A DNA stretch of 64,000 nucleotides from an uncultured Aminicenantes bacterium (GCA_965195285.1 CBDAFS010000031.1:1-64000), one strand, 5' to 3'. Positions 16,669 to 54,826 are shown, numbered from the stretch's first letter. The notes: generated from the sequence alone by a model not told the origin. Numbers and translations: made by a program.

Positions 16669-16686
16669 AAGAATTTAGTATCTCTT

Positions 16687-17050: not shown

Positions 17051-17071
17051 TGGCATATATCTGGCACAATT
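17051..17071 (+). repeat. Direct repeat copy 2 (TGGCATATATCTGGCACAATT)
   Basis: 18/21 identical to 15484-15504. Confidence 0.7.
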
Positions 17072-17231
17072 TGAAAGGTGCAGCAGTGCAAAGTCTGACT
17101 CCAGTCTATTTTATTAAACGTCATAAGAAGATTTGATCCCTTTTTTTTTACCATTCATGATATTGAAACAAAAGGATTTCTTAATTATAATTGATTTGAA
17201 CGTAGTGAATGTTTACAAGGAGAGAAAAATA

Positions 17232-21461: not shown

Positions 21462-21497
21462 ATAATAAAACTTTAATCTTTTGATGTATATCTAATC

Positions 21498-22970
21498 TTA
21501 TTCTTTTGTTCCTTTTTTCTCTATCATTGTTTCAATATTGGCTGCAATTCTGTGTATACTCATTCCTACAATAGCAAATCCAAAATTCAGAAAAACACCG
21601 GTGTTAAGAAAGTATAAATAGCCAATATATCCCAAGCCAACCAAAATAATGAGAGATACAAGAACCTGAGCCAATAGTGATGATAGGTATAAAAATGCAT
21701 AGGCAGCCAAAATAATAACAATTATTTCAAATAAAAGATTTATCCATCGTGGAGGTGGGGTTGGTTGTTTTTTGGTTAAGATTGTGTTTATGGCATTTCC
21801 AAGAATGTAAATTCCAGCCATTTCTCCAACAGGGGTTTGATGGATATCTCCAACATCCGGGCTTGAATTTCCGATAATTATGATTTTCTTTTTGATGAAA
21901 TCCTTATAATATGGTAATTGATCAAACTTGATGTTAATCTGAAAAAGATTTCCTTTACTTAAATCAGTTATTGTTTGATCTTGGTTTCTAAATTGGGAAG
22001 GAATTAATGAATAGCGAATTCTTTGCAAATATATAAAGTGTTTGTCATCAGTAACTTTTATTGTTTTTCCATTTCGAAGAGTTATTGTTGATTTAAAACT
22101 TTTAAATCTATTCTGATTTGATGATAATATCTCTTTTTCCAAATCGAATAAAACATTAATATTTCCATCGATAGCAAGTAATACAGTTAAGATGGGAATG
22201 CCCCATAGTATTTTCTTTGATCCATTGTTATCCACATAGGTGCTGTATAGATTCCAGTAACGGACAATGTCATCTCTGTGAGTTGCAGATACCCTGGGAA
22301 CAACTCTGTAAAATTTCCTGATATTATTGTTATAGTTTATTCCTTCCTCAAATAGATCGCTATATTGATTCTTTTTGAGATCACACTGGACGCCAATTCT
22401 TTGGGGGAATATGATTTTTGTTATGTTATTTTTATTATCATGAAGGATATTTTCAAGGACACTTCGCAATTTCTGATCAGCGTCTTTATCACTGGATTTA
22501 TCTTCTAATAATATATCTAATATAATCACTTTTGCCATACCTTGATAGGCAGTTTCCAGAATCGAAGCAAGTTTATCCCTTGGAGTAATTAATGGTTCTC
22601 CCCAGTCTTGATAGGTTTCATGATCAATATCAACAAACAATATTGGAGATGTCTTTATTTTTTGTTTTTCTTGAACTGCTTCTTTGGCTTCAGCTCTAAT
22701 AAAATGATCAAATAATTTATCAATAATGCTTTCCCCTAGACTTGTATGTTCCAAATAGTGCATGGATAAAGCAATAACGATACCTATTATGATATTTATA
22801 AAAAAATGGATTCTTTTCTTTTTATTGAACTTGAAAAAGTTAAATGCATTATTAAATCCTTTGGAAATAAATACAATAGTTTGAATAATTTTTCTTAGTA
22901 GGGAGGAAATAGTTTTAATACCTTGTCTTATTATTCCTCTTGATGAGGGAACTTTATTTTTTTGATTCAT
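21498..22970 (-). CDS. CHASE2-domain membrane protein without C-terminal output domain
   Basis: N-terminal TM, ILFVDID..T...W...PRDKLA, AKVIILDI, KIIIIG...DIHQTPVGEMAGIYILGNAINTIL, then three TMs and a stop about 15 aa later. Confidence 0.85.
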   Translation of the reverse strand: MNQKNKVPSSRGIIRQGIKTISSLLRKIIQTIVFISKGFNNAFNFFKFNKKKRIHFFINIIIGIVIALSMHYLEHTSLGESIIDKLFDHFIRAEAKEAVQEKQKIKTSPILFVDIDHETYQDWGEPLITPRDKLASILETAYQGMAKVIILDILLEDKSSDKDADQKLRSVLENILHDNKNNITKIIFPQRIGVQCDLKKNQYSDLFEEGINYNNNIRKFYRVVPRVSATHRDDIVRYWNLYSTYVDNNGSKKILWGIPILTVLLAIDGNINVLFDLEKEILSSNQNRFKSFKSTITLRNGKTIKVTDDKHFIYLQRIRYSLIPSQFRNQDQTITDLSKGNLFQINIKFDQLPYYKDFIKKKIIIIGNSSPDVGDIHQTPVGEMAGIYILGNAINTILTKKQPTPPPRWINLLFEIIVIILAAYAFLYLSSLLAQVLVSLIILVGLGYIGYLYFLNTGVFLNFGFAIVGMSIHRIAANIETMIEKKGTKE

Positions 22971-22981
22971 AATTTAAAAAT

Positions 22982-23950
22982 TTATTTTAATTGATGATTT
23001 ATCATCTGTTGTTCCAAATGATTGTAATAATGCATAATCAAGATGATAAAAAGCTTTTTATTGTCATCTTGAAGTGATTTTCTATCCATTTCGTTTAGAA
23101 TTAAATAACTCTTCCAATATAAATCAAATTCAGTGGGGTAAGTATCACTTATAAATTGTAAATATGATGCTCTTTTAAGCTTCTTTATAGTATCGTTCGA
23201 TTCTTTATTTCCAATAGACAAAAGATCCTTTTTTATCAAATCTGATTGAGATTTGTCTAAAATTTTTAAATAGTATTTATCAGTTTTTTCAATAGAATCT
23301 TTTTTGGTAACTTCCCAGGAGTAGATCCCTGAAGTTTTCAATTTTAATTCAACTACATTAGTTTTTATTGATTTATGACCTTTTGTTGGAGTACTAAATT
23401 TAATTGTATCTGAATTATCTTTAATTACTATTTCTTCTGTATCATTATTATCCCAGGCAAATGTAATGGTACTATCTGGCAGTAATGTTGCCCAATACCC
23501 AGGTTGAGGGAAAAAAGGTTCATCCTCCGCATTAATAATATCGTTTTCGCTCCTTGTGGCAAGGTTTCTTTTTTTATATCTTTCTTTTTCAAAGCCAATA
23601 AAAGAAGCAAGTTTTTTTAGGAATCCTTTTTTATCTTTAGGAGGATTATTTAAAATAATTATGGTTTTAGCATTTACTTTTTTTATTGATGTAAAAGGAG
23701 AAAGTTTTATCTTTAAGTTTTGGATCCCACTTTTTTGATAAATCTTATCGCCTTCAAAAAGTTCAGTCATAGGTTCAGCCTTAAATTTTAAATTATTGGA
23801 TCTCTGAACAACACAGTCTTTATCAAAACCACCCAGAAGTAAGGCAATTGGGTTTTTCGCATGAATTTCGGCACCTTGAATTATAAAAAAATAAAAAAAT
23901 ATTAAAATTAGATATAATTTATTTGATTTTTTTAAGAATGACTTATTCAT
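22982..23950 (-). CDS. Exported DUF928-like protein
   Basis: Signal-like N-terminus, ATRS linker, then P...TL...TITFAW, L..SGIYSWEV and a helical end with LY; the layout is typical of DUF928 partners of CHAT/CHASE2. AGGAGAGGAG RBS. Confidence 0.6.
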   Translation of the reverse strand: MNKSFLKKSNKLYLILIFFYFFIIQGAEIHAKNPIALLLGGFDKDCVVQRSNNLKFKAEPMTELFEGDKIYQKSGIQNLKIKLSPFTSIKKVNAKTIIILNNPPKDKKGFLKKLASFIGFEKERYKKRNLATRSENDIINAEDEPFFPQPGYWATLLPDSTITFAWDNNDTEEIVIKDNSDTIKFSTPTKGHKSIKTNVVELKLKTSGIYSWEVTKKDSIEKTDKYYLKILDKSQSDLIKKDLLSIGNKESNDTIKKLKRASYLQFISDTYPTEFDLYWKSYLILNEMDRKSLQDDNKKLFIILIMHYYNHLEQQMINHQLK

Positions 23951-24251
23951 TTCTCCTCTCCTTAACTACATTCTAAAAAAAATGATTAAATATTTCAATA
24001 CTTAATAGTAATAATGTCTGAACTATAGAATAGCCAAGTTTTTTCTTGAAATAAATATTTATTTTTTATATAAGAAACCTTATCTAAGCCTTTTAAACAA
24101 ATAGTTTATCATGTGTCATATCTTTACCATGTCTATTAAGAATATTTAAAAAGATAAGGATCAAATCTTTGTTATTGAAAAAGGCTTGGGAAAGATTATC
24201 AGGCAACAAATAGAAATGTGTAAAGATTGGGCATACGGTGGGAATTGGAAT

Positions 24252-40761: not shown

Positions 40762-41742
40762 TCAAATCTGTGTTTGACGTTTCAGACACAAGCTTTTAAG
40801 TTCTTCAACCTTCTGTCTGAAGACAGTATCCTTCTCCATCCCTTTTTTTATACCTCTGAGGACGGTACTGACCGAACTGTGGGCATTTAAAAAATAATCT
40901 TTTCCCAATTGCTCCAAGGTGTTATTCCGCAAAGATCTCGATAAATAAATTGCCACATCCCTCGGTTCATTAAAGGATCTTCTCTTGTCAATGCAAAGGC
41001 TTTTCCTGGGGATGTTATAATGTTTACAAACTACATCCATTATATGATCAAGATCTGGAGATAAAATTGAGGATTCAGGAATCTCCTTATCCCTTTTCTC
41101 CTGATAATATTTCTCTTTCATGGAAAGGACAAATTCGTCAGAACCAAAAAATGATGGCCATCTTTTACCTTCAAGGAGTTTTATAATCTCTTTTTTGTCC
41201 TCCTGGCCCATAAATTTTTTATAAGTAACCAGCTGGTTCTTTTTATTATTTGAAAAAATTGATAACATAAAATCCTTATACAACCAATTCCAATCCTTGG
41301 ATTTTGAGATATACCCTAGGTGACTACTCCACTCAAAATCATCAATATGTTTGACCAGTTTTGCCCGAAGGGGATTTCTGTGGATATACCGCAACAGCTG
41401 CATTAGATAGCTATCTCCCTCAACCAGGATCGATTTATAACGACCCTTGAATAACTGTCCTTCACAACTATTAATTTTATTAAACCTCTGGGTATACACG
41501 CCATTGACATGCCGCATAAATCGACTCAGGTTTCCTTTTGGTGTATTGATCAGTAAATGGTAATGATTGGACATTAAACAAAAGGCTGCAATATTGACTG
41601 TCCATAAATCTGAGGCTTCGAGTAATAATTCAACAAAGATATGGTAGTCCTTTTTTTTAAAAAAGATCTCTTCAGATCTTCTCCCCCTGTTCATGACATG
41701 ATACCAGGCTCTAGCGTATTCAATTCTTAATGGTCGACTCAT
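40762..41742 (-). CDS. REP-associated tyrosine transposase-like (Y1 HUH) with C-terminal DnaA-domain-IV-like HTH
   Basis: MSRPLR, YHVMNRG, LMSNHYHL (HUH), LFKGRYKS, RYIHRNP (catalytic Tyr), WSS; tail VCKHYNI...PRDVAIYLSR...LEQLG...HSSVS. Confidence 0.9.
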   Translation of the reverse strand: MSRPLRIEYARAWYHVMNRGRRSEEIFFKKKDYHIFVELLLEASDLWTVNIAAFCLMSNHYHLLINTPKGNLSRFMRHVNGVYTQRFNKINSCEGQLFKGRYKSILVEGDSYLMQLLRYIHRNPLRAKLVKHIDDFEWSSHLGYISKSKDWNWLYKDFMLSIFSNNKKNQLVTYKKFMGQEDKKEIIKLLEGKRWPSFFGSDEFVLSMKEKYYQEKRDKEIPESSILSPDLDHIMDVVCKHYNIPRKSLCIDKRRSFNEPRDVAIYLSRSLRNNTLEQLGKDYFLNAHSSVSTVLRGIKKGMEKDTVFRQKVEELKSLCLKRQTQI

Positions 41743-41819: not shown

Positions 41820-41984
41820 ACCCTGATAGACCAATAACACCTGTCACCCACATTTCAGCCTCCAGCTCCCTGCCCCCAGACAAAACCAGTTCAAGGTTAT
41901 TTTTTTTTACCTTTACCTTAACCTTTACCTGAGTATTGAAAAAAAAGTGAATTGGTGGTAAAAAATAAGATGATTGGATTGGAG

Positions 41985-43022
41985 ATGACACGATTTGAGT
42001 TTTTGACCGGAATACTGGGTTCGGCAGCGATATTTTTAATGCCCTGGGCCGGATTCTCAGAGCTTAAAAAAGATAAGCAGGGGAAAACCGCTTACCTCTA
42101 TGATGAGGTTTATCTGGAGCATGAAACCGGCGGATTTCACCCGGAGCGGCCCGAGCGCCTCATGGCCATCAACAAAATGGTTGAAAATTCCGGGTGGAAT
42201 AAAGATTTGCTGAAATTACAGGCCCGGGTGGCCGACCCGGACACCATTGCCCGTGTCCACGAACAGGAATATATTGACAGAGTCAAGCGGGAGTGTGAAG
42301 CCGGCTATGGCGGATTGTCCACCGGCGATACCACCATTTGCCGGGAAAGTTATTCGGTGGCCCTGAAGGCAGTTGGCGGGGTGCTGAATACGGTGGATGC
42401 GGTGATGGATGGGAAAGCCAAAAATGCCTTCTGTGCGGTTCGCCCGCCCGGACATCATGCCGGCCAGAAACAGGGGATGGGATTCTGCGTGTTCAACAAC
42501 ATTGCCATTGCCGCCCGTTATGCCCAGAAAAAATATGGCCTGGAGCGGGTATTGATCGCTGACTGGGATGTGCATCACGGCAATGGTACCCAGGATATTT
42601 TTTATGAGGATCCAACGGTTTTTTACATGAGCAGTCACCAGTATCCCTGGTACCCGGGAACCGGTCACTTCAGTGAAACCGGTTCGGGCCCGGGAAAGGG
42701 ATTTACCATGAACCGGCCCTTTCCGGCCGGGTCCGGTAATAAAGAGATCATCAATGTCTATCAGAATGATTTGATAAGCGCTGCCAGGGAATTCAAGCCC
42801 CAGCTAACCCTCATCTCGGCCGGTTTTGATTCACGGGCCGGAGATCCACTGGGGAATCTATTGCTGGATGATCAGGGGTTCAGGGAATTAACCCGGATCA
42901 TGCTGGAGATTGCTAACATCAGCGGGAAGGGCAGGCTGGTTTCCATTCTGGAGGGCGGCTATAGCCTGGAGGGCCTGTCACTGGGCATCCAGGCTCACCT
43001 GGATGAATTATCAAGAGCGTAG
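41985..43022 (+). CDS. Zn-dependent histone deacetylase-family amidohydrolase with N-terminal export-like leader
   Basis: HPERPERL, RPPGHHA, GFC.FNN, DWDVHHGNGTQ, SAGFD, LEGGY; start uncertain (41952-41985). Confidence 0.9.
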   Translation: MTRFEFLTGILGSAAIFLMPWAGFSELKKDKQGKTAYLYDEVYLEHETGGFHPERPERLMAINKMVENSGWNKDLLKLQARVADPDTIARVHEQEYIDRVKRECEAGYGGLSTGDTTICRESYSVALKAVGGVLNTVDAVMDGKAKNAFCAVRPPGHHAGQKQGMGFCVFNNIAIAARYAQKKYGLERVLIADWDVHHGNGTQDIFYEDPTVFYMSSHQYPWYPGTGHFSETGSGPGKGFTMNRPFPAGSGNKEIINVYQNDLISAAREFKPQLTLISAGFDSRAGDPLGNLLLDDQGFRELTRIMLEIANISGKGRLVSILEGGYSLEGLSLGIQAHLDELSRA

Positions 43023-43045
43023 TAAGTCATTTTATTTAAAGCAAA

Positions 43046-44980
43046 ATGAAAAAAATTTCCTGGCTCATTATTCTCCTGATTTTACTGAATTTCATTTTAT
43101 ATTCATCTGAAAAACCTAATGAAAAAAGAGTCGTTTCGGTAGGGATTTGTCTGGATGAGGAATGTCAGGAATTAAGCAAATGGGATTTTTTGAGAGACAT
43201 GATTAATGAGGTGTCAAAAGATTTTGAAAAAGATTTTGCCATCGTATTATCTCCTGAAAAATATCAGCCCTGGAAAAGTAATAATAAATTTCATTCCCTG
43301 GACTTACTTTTTCAATCTTTTATTAGAAAAGTCACTAAAAAAAATTTTAATATTGTTTTAGGATTTACAAATCAGGAAGGTATTCAGGGAAGTTACGGGA
43401 TATCCCTTTATCAAGAGGCCTATATCCTTGTCCGGTTTTTAGAAGACAGAACATTTTTAAAAAAAGTATTAATGCACGAAATGTGTCATCTTTTTGGTGC
43501 TACTCATGTGGATGACGAAAAAGACTTGATGGATAGGTTTCTGAGAGGAACAGAACTGGGGCAGGAAAATAAAAAAATCATTGATCTGCATAGAGAGAGA
43601 AATTTTAAGAATATTGGGTTTCCTCTGCCCAGGGAAGAATTTACAAAATTGATTGAACTGTATAATAAAATTGCCATTTCGAATGAATTGCTAAAAAACA
43701 GTAAACTGCCTTCAACCAAGAGGAGACAGCTGCGAAAGAAGCTGAATTTTTTACCGTCAATAAAATCAACATTACAAGAGGTTCAAAAAGTTTATTCAGG
43801 TCTGGAGGATGTTTATATTTATCTGGTTTTTATATTTATTGAAATGGAAAGATACGATGAGGCATTAAATACCTGTGAGAAAGCCTTGAGAATCAATCCC
43901 GATCTGAATGAAGTTTATAATCTGATGGGAATTGCCTCTCGAAGAAGTGGCAAAATAAATAGAGCTATTCAGTATTATAAGAAGGTTCTGAAAAGCAGGC
44001 CTGATTATCCGAAAGTACATTATAACCTTGGAATCGCTTATATGAAAAGAGGGGATGTAGACTTAGCCGTCTCAGCATATAAAAAGGCTATTGGTTTAAA
44101 TCCCAATTTTGCCGATCCCTGGAACAATCTTGGTTATATTGATCTTGAGAAAGGAAGGCTGGATCAAGCCCTTGAGAAATTTAAGAAGGCCATTGACCTG
44201 AATCCTTTTTTCCCTCTGGCCTATTCCAATCTTGCCGAAGGATTATTAAGAAAAGGACAGGTTGATATTGCATTAGAGAAAGTAAAAAAAGCATTGACAC
44301 TGGATTCTCGATTACCCGGTCCTCATAATATTTTGGGAAAGATCTATTCTGCAAAAAAAGAATTCCATAAAGCTGAAAAAGAATATAAAATAGCCATATC
44401 ACTAAAGCCCAGTTATTATAAAGCCTACTTCAATTTGGGCAATATCTGTTTTAAAAAAAGCCAGCTATCTCAAGCCCGTAAATATTTTCAGAAGTCTATT
44501 GATATTTCTCCCCGATTCGGTCAAGCGTATGCTGGCCTGGGGGATTGTTTTCTTAAAGAAGGACATCTGGATCAGGCGGAAAGAAAATTCAAAAGAGCCG
44601 TCAACCTGGGGTATAAAACAGCCCAGGTCTATTTGAATCTCAGTTTCATAAAAATAAAAAAGAAGGATTATGATGGGGCCATTCATTACGGGAACCTGGC
44701 CAGGACCGATTTCCCCGGGCATGAAAAAGTACACCAGAATCTGGGTATCGCCTATTTCCTGAAGGGAATGTTGCCTCAGGCCGAACAGGAGTTCAAAGAT
44801 GTGCTTCGCTTAAATCCGAAACATGCCGATATGCATAAAAATCTAATGATGCTTTATTTATTAAAAAAAGACTATAATATGGCAGGCCAATACCTGGAAA
44901 AATACGAGAAACTGGGTTTTCAGGTGAATGAAGAATTGAAAAATGAAATATTGAGATATAAAAAAGAGCAAGAAAAATAA
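43046..44980 (+). CDS. Exported metzincin (M12/reprolysin-like) metalloprotease fused to TPR array
   Basis: Signal peptide, HEMCHLFGATH (HExxHxxGxxH) plus Met-turn DLMD, about 10 TPRs. Confidence 0.82.
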   Translation: MKKISWLIILLILLNFILYSSEKPNEKRVVSVGICLDEECQELSKWDFLRDMINEVSKDFEKDFAIVLSPEKYQPWKSNNKFHSLDLLFQSFIRKVTKKNFNIVLGFTNQEGIQGSYGISLYQEAYILVRFLEDRTFLKKVLMHEMCHLFGATHVDDEKDLMDRFLRGTELGQENKKIIDLHRERNFKNIGFPLPREEFTKLIELYNKIAISNELLKNSKLPSTKRRQLRKKLNFLPSIKSTLQEVQKVYSGLEDVYIYLVFIFIEMERYDEALNTCEKALRINPDLNEVYNLMGIASRRSGKINRAIQYYKKVLKSRPDYPKVHYNLGIAYMKRGDVDLAVSAYKKAIGLNPNFADPWNNLGYIDLEKGRLDQALEKFKKAIDLNPFFPLAYSNLAEGLLRKGQVDIALEKVKKALTLDSRLPGPHNILGKIYSAKKEFHKAEKEYKIAISLKPSYYKAYFNLGNICFKKSQLSQARKYFQKSIDISPRFGQAYAGLGDCFLKEGHLDQAERKFKRAVNLGYKTAQVYLNLSFIKIKKKDYDGAIHYGNLARTDFPGHEKVHQNLGIAYFLKGMLPQAEQEFKDVLRLNPKHADMHKNLMMLYLLKKDYNMAGQYLEKYEKLGFQVNEELKNEILRYKKEQEK

Positions 44981-45100
44981 AATAGGTTTTGAAAAAAACC
45001 AATTATTGCCTATTTTTTGACATCAGATTTTTCATATGTTATATCTTTAAGTAATAAATATGGAGTTATATGATCTGATTCATCCCTGGGTAAACAAAGA

Positions 45101-46060
45101 ATGAAAATCAAAGAAATAAAAGATATCAATCCCGGGCAATTCATTGATCAGAAGATCAGAGAAACACATTCTTTTGTGGGAGATGCCCTGGCCATCAATA
45201 CCCTTTCCGGAGGTGTGGATTCGGCAGTGGTCACCATGCTGGGTTATCGGGCCCTGGGAGAGCGGTTGAAAACCTTTTTTATCGATACCGGATTGATGCG
45301 AAAGGATGAGCCCCAACAGGTGGTTTCAACCTTTAAAAAATTAGGGATTCACGTTCAGGTTGTTCAGGCCCAGGATCAAATCTTTTCCGCTCTGAAGGGT
45401 TTGAAGGATCCGGAAGAGAAACGGGCTACCATCACTCATATTTTTTACAAAGAAATTTTCGGAAAATTGATCAGGGAAAGCGGAGCCAAATTTTTACTCC
45501 GGGGCACCAATTATACCGATGTGGAGGAAACTGTTGCCGGTTTGAAACACCAGCAAGAAGTACTGGAACAGCTGGGGATTGATACCGAAGAGGTCTACGA
45601 ATACAAGGTGATCGAACCCCTGATTCAGATCCGAAAACCATTGGTTCGTAAAGTCTGCCGTACTCTGGGCATGCCCGCAGCCATCCATTCCCGCCCCTCT
45701 TTTCCGGCACCGGGACTGGCAGCCAGGATTTTGGGTGAAATCACTCCGGACAAAGTTGACCTGGTCCGGGAAGCCAATAGAATTGTGGAAACATTTTTAT
45801 CCGCAACCGGAGCGTTTCAATATATGGCCATCCTACACAATGACTGGGTAACCGGAGTAAAAAAGGGAAAGCGTTATCCCGGCTGGCAAATTGAAATCAG
45901 GTGCTGGGATAGCAAGGATGCACTGTCAGGGGTTCCCTTCAGATTGAACCAGACACTCCTGCTGGAGATGTCGGATAAAATAATAGCCGAAGTGCCGGGA
46001 GTGGTCAGTGTGTTATACAATATCACCAGAAAGCCACCCTTAACCATTGAGGCTGTATAA
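45101..46060 (+). CDS. GMP synthase subunit B-like ATP pyrophosphatase (no GATase domain), divergent
   Basis: SGGVDS PP-loop, IDTGLMRKDE, DPEEKR, IEPL, FPAPGLAARILG, YNITRKPPLTIE. Confidence 0.8.
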   Translation: MKIKEIKDINPGQFIDQKIRETHSFVGDALAINTLSGGVDSAVVTMLGYRALGERLKTFFIDTGLMRKDEPQQVVSTFKKLGIHVQVVQAQDQIFSALKGLKDPEEKRATITHIFYKEIFGKLIRESGAKFLLRGTNYTDVEETVAGLKHQQEVLEQLGIDTEEVYEYKVIEPLIQIRKPLVRKVCRTLGMPAAIHSRPSFPAPGLAARILGEITPDKVDLVREANRIVETFLSATGAFQYMAILHNDWVTGVKKGKRYPGWQIEIRCWDSKDALSGVPFRLNQTLLLEMSDKIIAEVPGVVSVLYNITRKPPLTIEAV

Positions 46061-46095: not shown

Positions 46096-47883
46096 ATGGT
46101 CAAAGGCATTCAGAATAAATATCTACAGATTGATCTCGACAACCGAACCTTCCGGTCCGGAACTCCACCCGGGGATCTTTTTCCCCAATTTTTAGGAGGA
46201 AAAGGCGCGGGATTGAAAGTCATGATGGATCTGGGGCTGACCTCAGAAGATCCATTCGGGGCAGGTAATCCCCTCATATTTGTGACCGGCCCTTTTACCG
46301 GGACACCGGTTCAGACATCGGCCCGCTCTGCCCTGGTCACCATGTCACCGTTGACCGGAACCTTTCTGGACAGCCATGTGGGTGGCCATTTCGGCCCCAT
46401 GATCAAGAGAGCGGGATATGACTATGTGGTCATAACCGGAAAGAGTGAACACCCGGTTTATCTCTATTTCACTCCGGATGGGGTGGTATTTGAGGATGCC
46501 GCATCCCTCTGGGGCCGGGGTATATTTGAAACCGAAAAGCAGTTAAAATCCAGATACCCAAAGAGCCGGATCGCTTCTATAGGGCCGGCCGGAGAAAACA
46601 AAGTACGCTTTGCCTGTATCGGTACCGATTACTACCGGCAGTTCGGCAGGGGAGGGGCCGGAGCGGTAATGGGATCAAAAAACCTCAAAGCCGTGGTGTT
46701 TGAGGGCAATGAAAAAGTTGATTTTTTCGACCGCGACAAATTTACGGAACTCAACACCCGTCTGACCAATGATGTCATGCAGCATCCCAACCGGGCCAAA
46801 AGATTTGATCTGGGCACCAACATGTGGATACGCATGGCCCAGGAAGATGGTCATTTTCTGCCTACCCGGAATTTTCAGGATGTTCACTTTGAGGATTATG
46901 AAAATATTACCTCTGAAGCAATGAAGAAAAAACTGAACTGGAAGAGTGTGGGCTGTTTTAATTGTGTTATTCAATGTTCCAAAATGGCTACTTGGAAGGG
47001 TTTTGAACTGGAGGGTCCTGAATACGAAACCACCGCTTATCTGGGATCCGGCTGTGGTATTGGTGATGCCGAAGCAGTGGCCCAGGCCAATTATCTTTGC
47101 GATGATCTGGGGTTGGATACCATTTCCGCCGGGGTGGTTACTTCTTTTGTCATGGAGGCCTTTGAAAAGGGTATTCTCTCCCCCCAGGATTGTGATGGAC
47201 TTGAACTGAAATTCGGGAATGCCCAGGCCCAGGTTTCATTGTTGAAAAAAATAGCCAGCAGGGATGGTATCGGGGATATTCTGGCCGAGGGAACTCGGAT
47301 CGCTTCCCGGCATATCGGAAAGGGAAGTGAGTATTTTGCTATCCAGACTGCGGGGATGGAGCTGTCAGGGGTGAACATCAAGGGATGTGCCTCAATGGGA
47401 TTGACCCTGGCCACTTCGGATTTCGCCAGTCATACCCGGTTCTGGTCTGCCTCGGATGAGATGGCCGGTAATTTGACCTTTGAAAACACACCGGAATATG
47501 TCATGAAAGGCCAGGATGAGGTTAATGCCCGAAACTCTTTGATCATATGTGATTTTCTGCCTTTCGGATTTGATCGCCTGGTTCCGATTTACGAGAGTCT
47601 GACCGGGATCAAGGTGGATGAGTCCCGTTTGATGGAGATCGGGGAAAAGATTTCCAATATCACCCGGATGATCAATATCCGGAACGGAAGAACCCGGAAA
47701 GATGATACGCTGCCCCAGCGGTTTTTCAAAGAGGAGCACCTGGCAGGAATCTTCAAGGGGAAATATATGTCTATGGAAATTTTCGATCAATGGCTGGATA
47801 TGTATTACCAGGCCAGGGGATGGGACCCAAAAGGGATTCCCACAGATGCCAAGTTGAAAGAACTGGATTTAGATCATTTTTAA
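46096..47883 (+). CDS. Tungsten/molybdenum aldehyde:ferredoxin oxidoreductase family protein
   Basis: SPLTG, GGHFGP, SIGPAGE, GRGGAGAVMGSKNLKA, CFNCVIQC, PEYET, DDLGLDTIS, DDTLPQRF, YYQARGWD..GIP. Confidence 0.95.
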   Translation: MVKGIQNKYLQIDLDNRTFRSGTPPGDLFPQFLGGKGAGLKVMMDLGLTSEDPFGAGNPLIFVTGPFTGTPVQTSARSALVTMSPLTGTFLDSHVGGHFGPMIKRAGYDYVVITGKSEHPVYLYFTPDGVVFEDAASLWGRGIFETEKQLKSRYPKSRIASIGPAGENKVRFACIGTDYYRQFGRGGAGAVMGSKNLKAVVFEGNEKVDFFDRDKFTELNTRLTNDVMQHPNRAKRFDLGTNMWIRMAQEDGHFLPTRNFQDVHFEDYENITSEAMKKKLNWKSVGCFNCVIQCSKMATWKGFELEGPEYETTAYLGSGCGIGDAEAVAQANYLCDDLGLDTISAGVVTSFVMEAFEKGILSPQDCDGLELKFGNAQAQVSLLKKIASRDGIGDILAEGTRIASRHIGKGSEYFAIQTAGMELSGVNIKGCASMGLTLATSDFASHTRFWSASDEMAGNLTFENTPEYVMKGQDEVNARNSLIICDFLPFGFDRLVPIYESLTGIKVDESRLMEIGEKISNITRMINIRNGRTRKDDTLPQRFFKEEHLAGIFKGKYMSMEIFDQWLDMYYQARGWDPKGIPTDAKLKELDLDHF

Positions 47884-47938
47884 TGATATGTGTCATCGCC
47901 TGTGTTGATAATGAATCGCTTAGAAAAGGAGGAATCGA

Positions 47939-49120
47939 ATGAAAAAGGCCCATAATCGGCTGGCCAACCGCATCCAGCACCTGGAGCCGGAAGGTGCCTA
48001 TGAGATGCTGGCCCGGGCCCAGCAACTGGAATCAGAAGGGCGGAAAATCATTCATCTTGAAATCGGTCAACCGGATTTCCAGACTTTTACCAATATCGGG
48101 ATTTCAGGGATCCGTGCCATTGCCAACGGGCAGACCCGCTATACCCCTTCGGCCGGAATTCCCGAATTAAAAAAGGAAATTGCCCGGTATACCGCTTCCC
48201 GGATAGGTATTCCGTTAACAGCAGATCAGGTGGTGGTGGGACCCGGTGCCAAACCACTACTTTTCTTTCCCATGATGGCCATTCTGGAACCGGGCGATGA
48301 AGCCATATATCCGGATCCGGGATTTCCCAGCTACCGGGCCATCATCGAAACCATGGGAGCTACACCAATACCGATTTCCTTGAAAGAGGAATCCGGTTTT
48401 TCTTTTGATATGGATGTGTTTTTGAAGCAGGTCAATGAGAATACCCGGCTGGTGATTATCAATTCCCCTTCAAATCCCACCGGAGGCATTATTCCCGAGC
48501 ATGACCTGAAGCGTATCGCCGATATGGCCATTGAATATGATTTCTGGGTTTTATCCGATGAAATTTATACCCGGCTGGTTTATTCCTCGGAGCCCATTCT
48601 GAGTATTGCCTCAATGCCGGGCATGAATGAGCGTACGATTATCATGGATGGATTTTCCAAAACCTATGCCATGACCGGCTGGCGACTGGGTTACGGGCTG
48701 ATGCCTGAAGATTTGGCCCGGAAGGTGGGATTGCTGTTAACCCATTCTGTGGGCTGTACCGCTTCCTTTACCCAGATAGCCGGTATTGAAGCTTTAATTG
48801 GACCCCAGCAACAGGTAGAAGAAGTACGCCAGCTGTTTCAGAAGCGGCGGGATGTGATTGTGAGCGGATTGAATAATATTCCCGGAATAGAGTGCCAGAA
48901 TCCCCAGGGGGCTTTTTATGTGTTTCCCAATATTAAAAGTTTTGACCGGTCTTCAAAAGAATTGGCTGATTTTCTGTTAAATGAGGCCGGAGTGGCCGTG
49001 CTGCCCGGAACGTCTTTTGGAGACCTGGCTGAGGGTTATCTGCGGCTGTGTTATGCCAATTCGATTGAGAACATCGAAAAGGCCCTGGCTCTGATCGAAC
49101 AGGCAGTGAAAAAACTTTGA
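47939..49120 (+). CDS. PLP-dependent class I/II aminotransferase (aspartate aminotransferase-like)
   Basis: GQPDF, INSPSNPTG, SDEIY, GFSKTYAMTGWRLG, GAFYVF, YLRL. Confidence 0.94.
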   Translation: MKKAHNRLANRIQHLEPEGAYEMLARAQQLESEGRKIIHLEIGQPDFQTFTNIGISGIRAIANGQTRYTPSAGIPELKKEIARYTASRIGIPLTADQVVVGPGAKPLLFFPMMAILEPGDEAIYPDPGFPSYRAIIETMGATPIPISLKEESGFSFDMDVFLKQVNENTRLVIINSPSNPTGGIIPEHDLKRIADMAIEYDFWVLSDEIYTRLVYSSEPILSIASMPGMNERTIIMDGFSKTYAMTGWRLGYGLMPEDLARKVGLLLTHSVGCTASFTQIAGIEALIGPQQQVEEVRQLFQKRRDVIVSGLNNIPGIECQNPQGAFYVFPNIKSFDRSSKELADFLLNEAGVAVLPGTSFGDLAEGYLRLCYANSIENIEKALALIEQAVKKL

Positions 49121-49165
49121 GACAGAAAACCGCTAAATTTAAATGATAAAAACAAGGAGGAATGA

Positions 49166-50404
49166 ATGGCTTTACATTATTCTTTTTTAAGTGAAAAAGA
49201 CAGGCAACAGATGGATGCCCTGAAGGAATCGTATGGGGGTGCATCCGAGATTATGAAAACCATAGAAAATCTGAGGGAATATCCGAAGCGAAAACAAATT
49301 GCCGAAGAAAAGGGATTTGGAGAAATGCTGGAACAGGCTGAGAACTATGCCAAATCCTTTCCCAAAGTTGAGGATTTTATTGAGAGGGAAAGCCTTCAAT
49401 TGATCAAGCCCGGGAAGGCAACCACACAGGTGTCCGGGTTTCAGGGTGCTCCCATTACCCTGGGAGCCATGAAGAGAATTGCCGAGGACGGTGAGACCCT
49501 GGTGCCCACGGAGTTCATATCGGTTATGGCCCTGAGCGAAGATTATGTGTTGAATGGCGAGCTGGTGACCACCCTGGCCATGGCCGAAAATATCATGGGT
49601 GCATCCAAGTTTTGCAATACCAATATGGTGGGGACACCGCTCAACAATGAGATCTACAGTAGGCTGGAAAAGGTGACCGGTGAAAAATTTGACACCTGGG
49701 AACCTGCTTCGGGAATGCGAGCCCTGGTGTTGAAAAATATGGGAACCCCCTTTGGTAATCTAGGCGGGGTGGAAGTGGCCAATAACAATCATCTGGTGTA
49801 CCTGGATGGAGTCACCCGGTGTACATTGAACACCGGGGGGGATTTTTACCTGAATCCCAGCTGGTCGACAATTGTGGCTGCCTGCTATTATGCCCGGGAT
49901 ATTCTGAATCTCAATTTTAAGATTTCCATGTTGCTGTCAACCCAGAATGTCATTCAACTTCGTATGCTGTTGAATATCATGAAAGAGTACCTCCGGGATA
50001 ATGGGACGACTCCGATATATGAAATCAATCTGGGTAATGGTCAATCGCCGGAAATGTTTATTCAATGTGCCCGGGACTTAAAGGAATCCGGAATTCCTGG
50101 AGTTTCCCTGGCTGCCCATTTGAGAATCAATCCGGACCTGGGCATTGCTGATTTTGACTGGACTGAGAATGCCCACCGGGTACTGGAATCGGGCACCGAT
50201 ATTACCATCAAATATGAAAGTGACGGAACCTCCAGACCCATGGATACCATGGGAACCTACTTTTTATCAAAAGAGGATCGACTCAAAAATCAGGAACAGA
50301 TCGGAGATGTCATTTATCATAAATGTGTGCGGTGTTCCAATGATGTTAAAGAAATAATGAGAATGGGACATCCGGCAAGTTTTGCCACCATTTCTCATCG
50401 TTGA
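49166..50404 (+). CDS. Uncharacterised soluble protein (412 aa)
   Basis: Long ORF with AAGGAGG RBS, co-oriented in the AOR-aminotransferase-homoserine dehydrogenase run; no family recognised. Confidence 0.8.
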   Translation: MALHYSFLSEKDRQQMDALKESYGGASEIMKTIENLREYPKRKQIAEEKGFGEMLEQAENYAKSFPKVEDFIERESLQLIKPGKATTQVSGFQGAPITLGAMKRIAEDGETLVPTEFISVMALSEDYVLNGELVTTLAMAENIMGASKFCNTNMVGTPLNNEIYSRLEKVTGEKFDTWEPASGMRALVLKNMGTPFGNLGGVEVANNNHLVYLDGVTRCTLNTGGDFYLNPSWSTIVAACYYARDILNLNFKISMLLSTQNVIQLRMLLNIMKEYLRDNGTTPIYEINLGNGQSPEMFIQCARDLKESGIPGVSLAAHLRINPDLGIADFDWTENAHRVLESGTDITIKYESDGTSRPMDTMGTYFLSKEDRLKNQEQIGDVIYHKCVRCSNDVKEIMRMGHPASFATISHR

Positions 50405-50429
50405 ATGACCTTTGAAAAGGAGGATAACC

Positions 50430-51449
50430 ATGATACATAGAATTATCATATTGGGTTTTGGTACGGTCGGGCAGGGTTTGGCTGAAATATTAATGTCAAA
50501 AAGAGATTTCTTGAAGAAGAAATACGGATTTGAATTTGAAGTGGTAGGCATCAGTGACCTGATGTGGGGCACGGTTTACAATCCGGACGGATTGAATCTG
50601 GAGAACCTGCTGGCCTCGGTTCAGTCAGAAACAAAATTTTCGCAGGATGTGAAAGACTGGGATGGTATGACCCTGATCAAGGAATCCAACGCAACTGTTC
50701 TTTGTGAGTTGACTTTTACCAATCTTGAATCCGGAGAGCCGGCCATCTCGCATTGTAAAACCGCTTTTCAAAACGGGAAACATGTGGTAACCAGCAATAA
50801 AGGTCCGGCTGCCCTGGCCTACCGGGAGATGAAATCCCTGGCAGCTGAAAAAGGGGTAGATTTTTTCATTGAAGGTACGGTCATGAGCGGAACCCCGGTG
50901 TTGAATCTTGCCGATGGTCCATTGGCCGGATGTGAGGTGTCCAAAGCCCGGGGTATTCTGAATGGAACCACCAACTACATCCTTACCCAGATGGAAATTG
51001 GTATGAGCTATGATGAGGCACTGAAAAAGGCCCAGGAACTCGGTTATGCCGAGGCTGATCCCGCCGGCGATGTGGAAGGATACGATGCCAGGGGCAAGGT
51101 GACCATCCTGGCCAATGCGGTCATGGATGCCTCATTGCGCATCTCCGATGTCCAATGTCAGGGAATCACCCGTATTTCAGCCGATGACATCGAAAAGGCC
51201 CGGGAAAAGAAATCACGCTGGAAGTTAATCGGTTCTGTGGAAAAGAAGAACGGGACGATTACCGCTTCTGTATCACCGGAAATGGTACCCATGACCCATC
51301 CCCTTGCCGGTATTATGGGGGCCACCAATGCCATTACCTTTTCCACCGATTTAATGGGCGATATCACTGTGGTCGGGGCCGGAGCCGGTAAAATTGAAAC
51401 CGGATATTCGATTTTAACCGATCTTCTGAGAATTCATCGTTCAGCCTGA
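50430..51449 (+). CDS. hom: Homoserine dehydrogenase (short form, no ACT domain)
   Basis: GFGTVG, HVVTSNKGP, EGTVMSGTP, GILNGTTNYIL, GYAEADP..DVEG.D, GAGAG..ET; start at 50430 after AAGGAGG. Confidence 0.92.
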   Translation: MIHRIIILGFGTVGQGLAEILMSKRDFLKKKYGFEFEVVGISDLMWGTVYNPDGLNLENLLASVQSETKFSQDVKDWDGMTLIKESNATVLCELTFTNLESGEPAISHCKTAFQNGKHVVTSNKGPAALAYREMKSLAAEKGVDFFIEGTVMSGTPVLNLADGPLAGCEVSKARGILNGTTNYILTQMEIGMSYDEALKKAQELGYAEADPAGDVEGYDARGKVTILANAVMDASLRISDVQCQGITRISADDIEKAREKKSRWKLIGSVEKKNGTITASVSPEMVPMTHPLAGIMGATNAITFSTDLMGDITVVGAGAGKIETGYSILTDLLRIHRSA

Positions 51450-51451: not shown

Positions 51452-51480
51452 TTGACAAACCGGTTCGAATTGCCTATGAT
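51452..51480 (+). promoter_or_regulatory. Sigma70-type promoter for the hybrid kinase
   Basis: TTGACA-17 nt-TATGAT. Confidence 0.65.
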
Positions 51481-51568: not shown

Positions 51569-53560
51569 ATGAATAATAGCTCAAAAAAGAGCACACAAAA
51601 ATCCAAAAAGTCAGAGGTTAGCATACTGGAGCTTCAGGCGGAGAACAAGAGGCTCCAAGAGGCCCTGCAGGAAATCACAGATCTGTACCAGGTGCTCCTG
51701 GAGACCTTTCCGGATGCCGTAACCATGAGTGATCTGGAAGGGAAAATTACCCAGGTTTCGCAAAAGACCCTGGAACTGCATGGATTCGATAGCATTGATG
51801 ATATGATTGATAAATATGTGCTGGATTTCATTGATCCCGATGATCATGAGATGGTTACAGAAAAAATGATGAAGGGGCTTGAGAAGGGTTTGGTGAGAAG
51901 CTTGGAATACAAGCTGGTACGAAAAGACGGGAGCCGGTTTCATGGAGAATCGAATGTGGCCCCGGTTAGGGATCCGGAAGGAAATGTCAAAGCCTATATT
52001 GCCACGACCCGGGATGTTAGTAAACGAAAGTCTCTCGAACGATCATTCAAAGACAGTGAAGAGCGGTATCGGCAGTTGATTGAATCCCAGAATGATGGCA
52101 TTTATCTGTTGTTCAACCGTAAATTTGAAATCATCAATAAGAAGTTCAGTGATATGTTTAAGCTGACCCTGGAGGATGTGAATGACCCGGATTTCGATTT
52201 CATTGACCTGGTTTCCCCCAAGAGCCGTTTTTTGGTTGAAGACCGGGTCAAAAAATTAGCTCAGGGAATCAAGCTGGAACCGAAATATGAATTTACCGCC
52301 CTTTCCAGGGATAATAAAGAAATCGAAGTGGAAGCCTCGGTTTCCTATATCAAGTACAAAGACGGTATCGGGGTTCTGGGCATTGTTCGGGACATTTCAG
52401 AACGAAAGCAGCTGGAAAAACAATTGCTTCAGGCCCAGAAACTTGAAGGTATCGGCAGGCTGGCCGGGGGAATTGCTCATGACTTTAACAATATACTCAC
52501 TTCGATAATCGGCTATGTGGGCCTGATCAATATAAAAATTCCGGTTGATGATCCCTGCCGGGATTACGTCAAGCAAATTCTAAAGGCTTCGGATCGGGCC
52601 ACCACCCTGGTCCAGCAACTTTTAGCCTTTAGCCGGAAAGCCATTACCAAGCCCCGGGTAATCAATCTCAATACGGTCATCAAGAACTTTTCCAAAATGT
52701 TGCAGCGAATACTGGGAGAGGATATTGAGTTTGAGTTTATTTCCGGACCGGATATCGACAACATCAAGGCGGATCCGGTTCAAATCGAACAGATTATCAT
52801 GAACCTGGCTGTTAATTCCCGGGATGCCATGCCCCAGGGTGGAAAACTCAGTATTGAGACCCAAAATTGCCTGCTGGATGAGAAATATGTCCACAAGTAT
52901 CCTTATGTAAAAGCGGGCCCCTATGTTTTGTTGATGTTCAGTGATACCGGTTCTGGCATGAATGAGGAAACCCTTTCCAAGATTTTTGAACCTTTCTTTA
53001 CCACCAAGACCAATGGGGAAGGAACCGGGCTTGGGCTCTCTATGGTGTATGGAATTACCAGGCAAAGCGGCGGTCATATTACCTGTTACAGTGAGGTTGA
53101 TCAAGGAACCATCTTCAAGATTTATCTTCCCCTGGTGGATGAACCGGCTGATTATGTTGCCAGCTCCCCGGAGCTGGCGGTGTTTCCAACCGGAACTGAG
53201 AGCATCCTGGTGGTGGAAGATGACATGACGGTTCGTGAAATGATAGTGGATATCCTGACCCAGAGCGGTTATCAGGTTCTGGTGGCCAGCAGCGGAAATG
53301 AAACCCTTTCCATCTGGGAGAGAAAGGCCAATGAGATTGATTTGCTGATTACCGATATGGTCATGCCGGGCATGAGCGGAAGCGAGCTGGCCAAACGCTT
53401 ATCTCAAAAAAAACCCCAGCTGAAAGTGCTTTACATGTCCGGTTATGCACGTCGTGCCATTTCTCAGTATGATATGGAAGGGGAAGATATTGCTTTTATT
53501 CAAAAACCGTTTAATGCAACTGATTTAACCATAAAAATCAGAGAAGTTCTGGATACTTGA
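51569..53560 (+). CDS. Cytoplasmic PAS-PAS hybrid histidine kinase with receiver domain
   Basis: Two PAS/PAC domains, AHDFNN, NLAVNSRDA, DTGSG, FEPFFTTK, GTGLGL, receiver EDD/TDMVMP/KPF. Confidence 0.94.
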   Translation: MNNSSKKSTQKSKKSEVSILELQAENKRLQEALQEITDLYQVLLETFPDAVTMSDLEGKITQVSQKTLELHGFDSIDDMIDKYVLDFIDPDDHEMVTEKMMKGLEKGLVRSLEYKLVRKDGSRFHGESNVAPVRDPEGNVKAYIATTRDVSKRKSLERSFKDSEERYRQLIESQNDGIYLLFNRKFEIINKKFSDMFKLTLEDVNDPDFDFIDLVSPKSRFLVEDRVKKLAQGIKLEPKYEFTALSRDNKEIEVEASVSYIKYKDGIGVLGIVRDISERKQLEKQLLQAQKLEGIGRLAGGIAHDFNNILTSIIGYVGLINIKIPVDDPCRDYVKQILKASDRATTLVQQLLAFSRKAITKPRVINLNTVIKNFSKMLQRILGEDIEFEFISGPDIDNIKADPVQIEQIIMNLAVNSRDAMPQGGKLSIETQNCLLDEKYVHKYPYVKAGPYVLLMFSDTGSGMNEETLSKIFEPFFTTKTNGEGTGLGLSMVYGITRQSGGHITCYSEVDQGTIFKIYLPLVDEPADYVASSPELAVFPTGTESILVVEDDMTVREMIVDILTQSGYQVLVASSGNETLSIWERKANEIDLLITDMVMPGMSGSELAKRLSQKKPQLKVLYMSGYARRAISQYDMEGEDIAFIQKPFNATDLTIKIREVLDT

Positions 53561-53578
53561 TTTCAGGTATAGATAAGA

Positions 53579-54826
53579 ATGAAGATTGAATTACCGTATC
53601 ACCGCCATCGTATTTCGATTGAAATACCCGATGGTATTCAAACCGAGATCGTAACTGCCAGAGAACATGCCTCCCGGGTCCAATCTGACCTTTTCCGTCA
53701 GGCACTGGCCAATCCGCTCAATTCGGTTTCGGTCGAAGCGTTCATGAATTCCGGGAAGGAATGTTTATTTATCATCAATGATGCCACCCGGCCCACTCCG
53801 ACTGCAGTTGTGCTGGAATCAGTTTATGACATCATAAGGGATAAGGATATCAAATTCATGATTGCCACCGGAACCCATCGTTCTCCCACCCTGAAGGAAT
53901 TGCAGGATATTATGGGGCGTTTTTATTTGGAATTCAAAGACTGTATTCTCATCCATGATGCCCGGAACGAAGATGAATTGGTAAAGGCGGGTCATTCCCG
54001 GGCCGGGCATGAGATATGGATAAACCGTCATGTTCATCAGGCCCGGAAACTGGTGGTCATCAATTCTGTAGAGCCCCATTATTTTGCCGGATACACCGGA
54101 GGGAGAAAGTCCTTTTTCCCGGGTATTGCCGGATATCATACCATTGAACAGAACCATAGATTCGCCATGAGCCAGGATTCCTGTTCCCTGAAACTGAGGG
54201 GAAATCCGGTTCATGAAGATATGGTTGATTCCCTGCGTTGTCTGGGGGATAAAGATATATTTTCGATTCAGACCGTGCTGGATCTCAAAAACAATATCTT
54301 TGCCGTCACTGCGGGTCATATCCATGATTCTTTTATGGCAGCCGTTAGAGAGGCGGAATCGATTTTTTCCGTAAAAGTCCGGAACCAGTCGGATATTGTG
54401 ATTGCCGTGGTGCTTCCCCCCAAAGATATCAATCTGTATCAGGCTCAGAATTCTCTTGAAAATGCAAAATTAATATTAAAAGACGGAGGGATTCTTATTC
54501 TGGTCTCATCCTGCCGGGAGGGAATAGGTCCTTCGGCATTTTTTGATTTATTGTCCGGATCCAACACCCCTCAGGATGTTCTGAAGACGGTTGAGAGCGG
54601 GTATAAACTCGGATACCACAAAGCGGTCAAGATTGCTCAGACCTTGGCACGGGCTGAAATCTGGGGGGTCACCGAACTGCCGGAATCCCAACTGGAATCT
54701 ATATTCATCCGTTCGTTTCATTCCCTGCAGGAGGCTGTGGGTCAGGCTGTTCAGAGCCAGGGCAGCCGGTCCAGTATGACCGTGTTGATGGATAGTGACC
54801 GGGCGGTTCCGGTGATAGGACCATGA
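53579..54826 (+). CDS. LarA-family nickel-pincer racemase/epimerase
   Basis: NDATRPTP, ATGTHR, HDA, PHYFAGYTGGRKS, NPVHEDM, NLYQA, CREGIG. Confidence 0.88.
   Translation: MKIELPYHRHRISIEIPDGIQTEIVTAREHASRVQSDLFRQALANPLNSVSVEAFMNSGKECLFIINDATRPTPTAVVLESVYDIIRDKDIKFMIATGTHRSPTLKELQDIMGRFYLEFKDCILIHDARNEDELVKAGHSRAGHEIWINRHVHQARKLVVINSVEPHYFAGYTGGRKSFFPGIAGYHTIEQNHRFAMSQDSCSLKLRGNPVHEDMVDSLRCLGDKDIFSIQTVLDLKNNIFAVTAGHIHDSFMAAVREAESIFSVKVRNQSDIVIAVVLPPKDINLYQAQNSLENAKLILKDGGILILVSSCREGIGPSAFFDLLSGSNTPQDVLKTVESGYKLGYHKAVKIAQTLARAEIWGVTELPESQLESIFIRSFHSLQEAVGQAVQSQGSRSSMTVLMDSDRAVPVIGP

Follow-up and report, generated by a model that had tools for sequence, protein, structure and literature searches.

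To our knowledge, threonine, methionine, lysine and diaminopimelate are all regarded as starting from one universal route, the aspartate-family pathway (Ask, Asd and Hom). A synthetic homoserine cycle in engineered E. coli is said to reach homoserine through a 4-hydroxy-2-oxobutanoate aldolase and an aminotransferase, relying on promiscuous enzymes. The breakdown of homoserine is described in canavanine degraders (Pseudomonas canavaninivorans and Rhizobiales), for which the accessible text of Hauth et al. 2022 (PMC9533460) reports that purified homoserine dehydrogenase (Hom), an operon-linked aldehyde dehydrogenase (ALDH) and aspartase take homoserine to fumarate; the Rhizobiales locus is reported to include threonine synthase and dapA as well (PMC9533460; see also PMC10228743). 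Here we describe a gene cluster at positions 46096-51449 of a 64,000-nucleotide stretch of DNA from an uncultured Aminicenantes bacterium (GCA_965195285.1 CBDAFS010000031.1:1-64000; the window, at its full length), in which Hom is accompanied by a tungsten-type aldehyde:ferredoxin oxidoreductase (AOR), an aminotransferase (AT1) and an orphan protein of 412 amino acids (U412). The gene set is real and conserved and lies outside the explanation of any curated family. We tentatively read it as a conserved 'homoserine hub' operon, which would be catabolic and energy-yielding in this organism, with U412 and an aminotransferase delivering homoserine.

The window is contig C31 in an assembly (G000) of 3.28 Mb and 62 contigs with a completeness of 94.87%, and the DNA runs found to contain this stretch are marine sediment and cold-seep metagenomes. 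The genes of the cluster, with lengths in amino acids (aa), are:

46096-47883, plus strand: AOR, tungsten-type aldehyde:ferredoxin oxidoreductase, 595 aa (AFOR_N and AFOR_C)
47939-49120, plus strand: AT1, class I aminotransferase, aspartate-aminotransferase-like, 393 aa (PF00155)
49166-50404, plus strand: U412, orphan TIM-barrel protein, 412 aa (AlphaFold2 model; no family)
50412-51449, plus strand: Hom, homoserine dehydrogenase without an ACT domain, 345 aa when read from TTG (NF004912)

The start of hom is probably the ATG at 50430, which has AAGGAGG 7 nucleotides (nt) upstream and gives a product of 339 aa. The original prediction had described four co-oriented genes with strong ribosome-binding sites and gaps of 25-55 nt, and both the open reading frame (ORF) calls and inspection of the sequence agreed: with the ATG start the gaps are 55, 45 and 25 nt, a further 35 nt separate AOR from a preceding PP-loop gene that is treated below, and a GGAGG-type site (GGAGG or AAGGAGG) lies ahead of each start.

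As in the canavanine loci, a putatively catabolic Hom is gene-linked to a predicted semialdehyde-oxidising enzyme, and some of the related loci contain threonine synthase and dapA, as the Rhizobiales locus does. Set against the accessible text on that route (PMC9533460), the enzymes differ: an NAD-dependent ALDH there is matched by a ferredoxin-linked, tungsten-type AOR here, ALDH being confined to relatives; aspartase turns aspartate into fumarate there, whereas an aminotransferase is encoded here; and homoserine is released from canavanine by a pyridoxal-phosphate (PLP) gamma-lyase there, whereas the conserved upstream gene here is U412. The organisms carrying the present cluster belong to anaerobic sediment and digester lineages. 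The claim of a new amino-acid fermentation route thus holds in part, since the passage of homoserine through aspartate semialdehyde to aspartate was already known and the homoserine-to-aspartate part of the cluster would be a new, ferredoxin-linked variant of it.

The assignment of AOR to its family was clear, with both domains recovered at full length (AFOR_N, PF02730, 238 bits, residues 8-204; AFOR_C, PF01314, 378 bits, residues 219-592) and with AOR proper as the closest solved structures (9mqx, E 3e-105; 1aor, E 3e-94). It shares the two-domain architecture of the Pyrococcus furiosus enzyme (1aor) and clear sequence similarity with it, but differs in belonging to a separate orthologous group linked to hom in two phyla. 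The window AOR is 51% identical to the AORs that follow hom in the Bacteroidales loci L020 and L027, whereas its identity to the other three AORs encoded in the same genome is just 27-32%; by these identities the cluster AOR is a distinct subfamily, orthologous across two phyla and tied to hom. The literature searched described no amino-acid semialdehyde as a physiological AOR substrate, and no paper linking AOR to aspartate semialdehyde or to Aminicenantes was found in a search that lay outside most subscription journals. Hom scored 446 bits against NF004912 (cut-off 373; residues 8-344 on profile positions 3-339, full length), and its Pfam domains, Homoserine_dh and NAD_binding_3 with no ACT, bear out the earlier description of an enzyme that lacks the feedback domain. 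AT1 matched Aminotran_1_2 (PF00155, 239 bits), and its best NCBIfam matches were aspartate aminotransferases that fell under their cut-offs (NF041091 and NF006229; archaeal AspAT, 328 against 550; the other equivalog, 316 against 624). We regard it as a class I/II aminotransferase, aspartate-aminotransferase-like, with a putative substrate.

To examine the conservation of the neighbourhood, we gathered 27 species-representative, 20 class-sample and 3 metagenome loci, called and clustered their ORFs and annotated the recurrent clusters. The ORF caller kept U412 in 46 of 48 loci, and the two in which it was lost (L042 and L055) were left out of the partner counts. The counts are lower bounds because many loci reach contig edges, and the loci come from related genomes and are not independent. 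Some aminotransferase was present in 38 of the 46 loci, in most cases of a second type (AT2; KAT-II/aminoadipate-type, AadAT-like; 34/46), followed by Hom (29/46), a cupin (22/46), AOR or ALDH (22/46; 11 each, never both), an SDR (21/46), AT1 (12/46), a MetY-like PLP enzyme that ends the operon (11/46), citrate synthase (11/46) and an IclR regulator (8/46), the last standing upstream of AOR or AT1 at the head of the cluster in eight Aminicenantes loci. Hom directly adjoins U412 in half of the loci (23/46), in both orders and with gaps down to a 4-bp overlap. The order AOR-AT1-U412-Hom was found in 7 of the 27 species-representative loci, and all four genes in 8. The genes thus co-occur across phyla, and the lack of co-occurrence that was to count against the original prediction was not seen. 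Its expectation that the unknown protein would be conserved with Hom and AOR was correct as far as it went; the steadiest partners are AT2, SDR and the small cupin, which it had not noticed. The recurrent layouts were:

Aminicenantes family of the window: IclR-AOR-AT1-U412-Hom-AT2
Second Aminicenantia family (f8): Hom-U412-SDR-cupin-AT2-MetY-like, with ALDH nearby
Bacteroidales and Cloacimonadota types, form 1: cupin-U412-AT2-SDR-Hom-AOR...DapA-ThrB
Bacteroidales and Cloacimonadota types, form 2: U412-AT2-SDR-cupin-ThrC-(AMP-binding)-alternative homoserine kinase

A branch only 40% identical to U412 keeps form 2, including the U412-AT2-SDR-cupin block. The solved relatives of AT2 are ordinary aminotransferases. 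A kinship of AT2 with canavanine gamma-lyase was considered and dropped, as the roughly 35% identical plasmid homologues in Sinorhizobium and Peptoclostridium sit in unrelated contexts. In the genome of the window, outside the cluster, the best AT2-like protein reached 37%, the best SDR 43% and the cupin 54-60% identity. The cupin orthologue (G000:C21:12310-12666; L077 8305-8661, minus strand) has genes for a bactofilin and for a radical SAM protein of the YgiQ type next to it; two genes away is a 391-aa protein that includes two class II aldolase stretches.

The evidence for the identity of the aldehyde comes from the genes beside hom. The hom and ALDH genes overlap by 4 bp in L015, L049, L051 and L052 and lie 16 nt apart in L017, and AOR follows hom in two Bacteroidales loci, after 16 nt in L027 and 161 nt in L020; in the window, AOR stands two genes upstream of hom, with AT1 and U412 between. 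Since AOR and ALDH are unrelated and occupy the same place beside hom, the aldehyde would be the product of Hom, aspartate semialdehyde, and this swap is the strongest support for that substrate. The cluster ALDH is of the non-acylating type (best match lactaldehyde dehydrogenase, 531-549 bits), which points to the direction from aldehyde to acid. An enzymatic precedent for Hom with semialdehyde oxidation to aspartate exists, with ALDH, in the accessible text of PMC9533460.

The same data bear on a looser reading, in which AOR and AT1 serve general amino-acid fermentation, acting on aldehydes from 2-oxo acids, and U412 and Hom form a separate unit. AT1 and the AOR-AT1 pair are nearly confined to Aminicenantes loci of the window's type (one AT1 locus, L014, is labelled Zixibacteria), the Peptoclostridium homologue of AT2 lies in a cluster for 2-oxoacid:ferredoxin oxidoreductase and butyrate kinase, and co-transcription of the four genes is argued from spacing and synteny. 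Against this, an orthologous AOR follows hom in another phylum and in another gene order (L020 and L027), and ALDH substitutes at the place of AOR. We consider a loose neighbourhood of this kind quite improbable.

The original prediction had remarked that no ask, asd, thrC or met genes lie near the locus, and this is true of the entire assembly. In G000 we found no match to Semialdhyde_dhC (the C-terminal domain of Asd), no aspartate kinase (Ask) beyond a 32-bit match, no DapA, no threonine synthase (ThrC) above the cut-off and no Cys/Met PLP enzyme (PF01053), and the only Hom was that of the window. Each of the control searches for the pathway genes gave matches in at least 13 of the 14 reference genomes, and it is unlikely that five unlinked genes are all missing from a 95% complete bin through assembly gaps. 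Another genus (G054, 92% complete) apparently shows the same pattern of absences. With these enzymes missing, the single Hom would not be biosynthetic; on the gene content of G000 it is without a known biosynthetic consumer or supplier, and the bacterium itself would be unable to make threonine, lysine or methionine. A broader statement, that the family of the window (f1) lacks Asd, was withdrawn: weak N-terminal TIGR01296 matches in f1 had first been read as ArgC, and those in G033 and G002 adjoin aspartate kinase and are probably divergent Asd, so that the absence is limited to G000 and, apparently, G054. In family f8, all four of the genomes G178, G180, G171 and G115 have full-length Asd-like genes and no aspartate kinase at E 1e-20; either Ask is divergent there or the semialdehyde dehydrogenase has another partner.

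In some other genomes the presence and absence of genes looked biosynthetic. In the Bacteroidales G204 and G205, Ask and Asd were not found, the only Hom lies in the cluster together with AOR, and each genome has two DapA, one of them in the cluster, as well as a ThrB in the cluster; ThrC was found only in G204. In G203, Ask and Asd were likewise not found, Hom lies in the cluster with ALDH, and ThrC is present. In the Cloacimonadota G201 and G202, all four of Ask, Asd, ThrC and DapA are present, with ThrC and an alternative homoserine kinase following U412-AT2-SDR-cupin, and Hom was not found. Patterns of this kind suggest a U412 module able to provide biosynthesis with homoserine or semialdehyde, but Ask and Asd occur in many carriers as well, and no completeness is given for G201-G205.

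They also bear on whether the pathway might run in reverse, as the original prediction had allowed. In that case oxaloacetate would be converted to aspartate, AOR would reduce aspartate to the semialdehyde with reduced ferredoxin, and Hom would pull it to homoserine, which would replace Ask and Asd without ATP. In acetogens, AOR and alcohol dehydrogenase reduce acids, which offers an analogy, and G204 and G205, with DapA and ThrB and without a detected Ask or Asd, need a source of semialdehyde. However, the partner of hom in 11 loci is a non-acylating ALDH, which is unable to reduce an acid, and G203 has this version and was also without a detected Ask or Asd; the completeness of G203-G205 is not given. 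In the window genome, no enzyme using homoserine or semialdehyde for biosynthesis was found. A reductive route is therefore at odds with the ALDH-bearing clusters and could still apply to the AOR-bearing ones of Bacteroidales; we regard it as unlikely.

Within the class sample, U412 was present in 50 of 201 genomes (47 at full length) and Hom in 173. The distribution of U412 is patchy, with 24/71 genomes in f1, 21/34 in f8 and 1/39 in a third family (f3), and only 5/28 in one genus (g2). Its gene has decayed in places: remnants of 35-49 N-terminal residues adjoin hom at G135:C32:19971-20075 and G137:C79:4341-4487, and the gene is split over two frames at G066:C1:412966-414196 and at L016 8001-9236. 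In a sample of 81 Cloacimonadales genomes (G201 and G206-G285), 14 had U412 and just 5 had Hom. U412 is present in four of these five, and three of them have both genes within 4 kb on one contig; as Hom occurs there mostly in carriers of U412, it appears to travel with it. The scarcity of Hom in this order suggests widespread threonine and methionine auxotrophy or an unrecognised replacement. The idea that U412 generally replaces Asd was rejected, since f8 carries both (U412 in 21/34 and Asd-like genes in 32/34).

The association in Cloacimonadales is one argument for another explanation, namely that U412 and AT2, with SDR and cupin where present, build homoserine independently of aspartate. 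The inputs could be pyruvate and a C1 unit, or a C4 sugar acid, by way of 4-hydroxy-2-oxobutanoate; Hom would then make semialdehyde for lysine, ThrB and ThrC would make threonine, and the organism of the window would keep a reduced form. The chemistry overlaps with that of the hub and the purpose is different. A true ThrC and a 'proposed homoserine kinase' follow U412-AT2-SDR-cupin in the Cloacimonadota loci L021 and L023 and in the divergent L074, the absence of a detected Hom in G201 and G202 and of Ask and Asd in G203-G205 is as this explanation would have it, and one homologue of U412 adjoins PanB, an enzyme that hydroxymethylates a 2-oxo acid. This homologue (L073 1403-3570) is 50% identical to the divergent P0124, comes after a cytidylyltransferase gene and overlaps the start of the PanB gene. 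On the other side, U412 has no assigned known chemistry, SDR alone could stand in for Hom in G201 and G202, the patchiness within genera such as g2 fits an accessory trait better than a core pathway, many carriers also hold the classical genes, and metagenome-assembled genomes (MAGs) are incomplete. A module of this kind for building homoserine is unlikely on balance. The corresponding wider claim, that U412 and the aminotransferase, with SDR and cupin where present, constitute a natural aspartate-kinase-independent route to homoserine or semialdehyde, which serves threonine and lysine/diaminopimelate in some Bacteroidales and Cloacimonadota-like bacteria, replaces Ask and Asd or Hom, and has the tungsten AOR linking the semialdehyde and aspartate pools to ferredoxin, is doubtful.

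U412 itself had no match in Pfam (even at E 10), NCBIfam or the sequences of the PDB, and was not linked to any solved structure by sequence, whether as a single sequence or as a profile of 22 sequences. A word-indexed search returned 1224 relatives at E <= 0.001. The best 120 were 67-97% identical and belonged to Aminicenantes, Latescibacteria, WOR-3, Stahlbacteria and others, and every name given by their sources was 'hypothetical protein'. An exhaustive search of 1.84 billion representatives yielded only 49 matches, four of them full-length, with identities of 57, 37 and 33% beyond the group of U412 itself. Judged by these searches, the family is compact and linked to nothing known. In the alignment of 22 sequences, 59 columns are invariant, and the residues E, D, N, K, S and G are frequent among them. 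AlphaFold2 gave a confident model (pLDDT 91.7, pTM 0.91), in which four N-terminal helices are followed by a (beta/alpha)8 barrel and a glycine-rich disordered loop spans residues 192-198. Foldseek found only generic TIM barrels in the PDB (TM <= 0.36), and the model thus presents U412 as a probable new TIM-barrel family, the activity of which is only proposed. A precomputed PF00016 tag carried by one homologue had suggested the RuBisCO-like proteins (RLPs), and we did not adopt them as the family of U412: only P0112 matches that profile, below the threshold (23.9 bits, cut-off 30.1) and not colinearly (residues 320-401 on profile positions 21-102), and RuBisCO and RLP chains reached Z scores of 11.2 and 10.8 against the model.

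A fold search of 48,161 chains, independent of Foldseek, placed glutamate mutase E first (1cb7_B, Z 14.4; root-mean-square deviation 4.0 over 258 residues, model residues 4-402), with ornithine aminomutase at Z 11.5. U412 might accordingly be a glutamate-mutase-like enzyme, radical and cobalamin-linked, or an oxygen-independent enzyme of methionine salvage (cf. MtnW, MtnD and MtnE), handling an isomerised or sulfur-bearing C4/C5 amino acid. The cupin and the KAT-type aminotransferase as constant partners, the MetY-like enzyme at the end of the operon in 11 loci, and the class II aldolase near the cupin orthologue of the window genome could be read in this way. However, the match to glutamate mutase E, although it covers nearly the whole length, is only about 2 Z units above unrelated TIM barrels (IspG, epoxysuccinate hydrolase, CutC and beta-keto-acid cleavage enzymes, Z 12-12.7), and there is no relationship in sequence: PF06368 gave no match, and hhalign against six Aminicenantia GlmE sequences, with both alignments shallow, returned a probability of 0.1%, so that homology with GlmE was rejected. 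The annotated recurrent neighbour clusters, which leave out some singletons, contain no B12-binding small (S) subunit, reactivase or MtnA, MtnK or MtnP. The 'Radical SAM/SPASM' neighbours in the ESM Atlas (0.90-0.93) have just 119-134 of 256 features in common with U412 and are only a lead, and the CxxxCxxC motif is absent from the alignment. On the model, the likeness to glutamate mutase E appears to be a resemblance of fold only, and a mutase or salvage function is very improbable. GlmE and U412 are nearly complementary by family (GlmE in 16/23 genomes of f3, 0/13 of f8 and 4/50 of f1), which may simply reflect lineage.

The flanks of the cluster contain the following features:

44981-45100, plus strand: A+T-rich spacer 5' of the PP-loop gene, with weak promoter-like sites (sequence and promoter scan)
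45101-46060, plus strand: PP-loop ATP pyrophosphatase, GMP-synthase C-terminal-like, 319 aa (Pfam GMP_synt_C, NAD_synthase)
51452-51480, plus strand: sigma-70-like site with 11/12 matches, the best of the region, after the hom stop and before a PAS histidine kinase gene (promoter scan)

The spacer contains a promoter-like match of 9/12 at 44989-45016 and is a possible start of the operon, on weak evidence, and the site at 51452-51480 likely marks the downstream end of the unit. In promoter and terminator scans of the region, the numbers of sites did not stand out from those in shuffled sequence (29 versus 25.1 expected, and 17 versus 18.1), and the argument for co-transcription is therefore one of spacing and synteny alone, from which a single AOR-AT1-U412-Hom transcript is likely. 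One small metatranscriptome run gave four short contigs with at least 99% identity inside AOR (46517-46754), AT1 (48752-49101) and Hom (50667-50900), which are weak evidence for transcription and none on operon structure. The product of the PP-loop gene scored 253 bits against NCBIfam guaA_Cterm (cut-off 339). By position the gene is probably co-transcribed with AOR, yet it is not a conserved member of the cluster: its product was a singleton, without a cluster partner among the ORFs of 47 related loci.

Combining family assignments, gene coupling, synteny and precedent, we propose the following steps for the hub. Hom would oxidise L-homoserine to L-aspartate 4-semialdehyde, AOR (a non-acylating ALDH in other lineages) would oxidise the semialdehyde to L-aspartate with reduction of ferredoxin, and the AspAT-like AT1 would convert aspartate to oxaloacetate, for a yield of NAD(P)H and reduced ferredoxin. 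Upstream, U412 would be a metal- or lysine-dependent TIM-barrel enzyme that produces 4-hydroxy-2-oxobutanoate, or a closely related 2-oxo acid, for conversion to homoserine by an aminotransferase. With the amino acid as intermediate, oxidation at C4 could proceed without forming a reactive 2,4-dioxo acid, and a second transamination would recycle the amino group. We suggest 4-hydroxy-2-oxobutanoate as the product because AT2 is the steadiest partner of U412, because the two aminotransferases of the Aminicenantes layout would close an amino-group cycle, and because the dioxo acid is avoided. The conversion of 2-oxo-4-hydroxybutanoate to homoserine is the chemistry of the synthetic homoserine cycle, and our literature searches returned no natural pathway dedicated to it. 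In other lineages the hub would additionally feed ThrB and ThrC, DapA or the MetY-like enzyme.

Several observations weigh against this interpretation and keep it tentative. The reaction of U412 is guessed, and neither its fold nor any sequence match assigns a chemistry to it; the action of AOR or ALDH on aspartate semialdehyde is predicted from genes alone, and AOR-aminotransferase pairs could serve general amino-acid fermentation. The window cluster lacks AT2, SDR and cupin, so that the upstream half may be incomplete here. The clusters of G204 and G205, with true DapA and ThrB and no detected Ask or Asd, look biosynthetic, many genomes with U412 also hold Ask and Asd, and the gene absences rest on draft MAGs. 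The RNA contigs, from one metatranscriptome, span no gene junction and do not cover U412, and may represent DNA carry-over.

Other features of the window were recorded. Downstream of the cluster (51569-54826), a PAS hybrid histidine kinase/receiver is followed after 18 nt by a LarA-family nickel-pincer 2-hydroxyacid racemase, the best match of which is malate racemase LarAH6 (356 bits, under the cut-off of 500). The LarA-like gene and the PP-loop gene were rejected as parts of the pathway because neither is kept in the related loci. Upstream, a histone-deacetylase-family amidohydrolase (356 aa) is followed at 41952-44980 by a 644-aa TPR protein, of which residues 133-167 weakly match the zinc site of matrixin (Peptidase_M10), and a 326-aa ORF at 40762-41742 (minus strand) joins an IS200/Y1 domain (REP-associated tyrosine transposase-like) to a DnaA C-terminal helix-turn-helix, with a shorter paralogue on contig C21 (39% identity over 135 aa). 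The 8 kb at 16001-24000 have a G+C content of 28-33%, compared with 45-51% on the flanks, and are possibly a foreign island; within them, 18-22 kb shows a strongly positive GC skew.

The compact gene set described here is common to Aminicenantes, Cloacimonadota, Bacteroidales, Zixibacteria, Phycisphaerae and others, and some of the genomes that carry it yielded neither Ask nor Asd. Through it, the sole Hom of several genomes is linked to an aldehyde oxidase and to an orphan family conserved at 57-97%. At the least, the catabolism of homoserine to aspartate would be extended to anaerobes with a ferredoxin-reducing step, which bears on energy conservation in sediment fermenters, and the AOR subfamily gains a candidate physiological substrate. 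U412 with SDR, cupin and aminotransferase is an uncharacterised module, and its function might alter the predictions made for aspartate-family metabolism in anaerobes. At most, if the proposal is true, there would be a new route to homoserine, a family of more than 1000 'hypothetical proteins' would gain a testable function, and the auxotrophies predicted for uncultured lineages would change.

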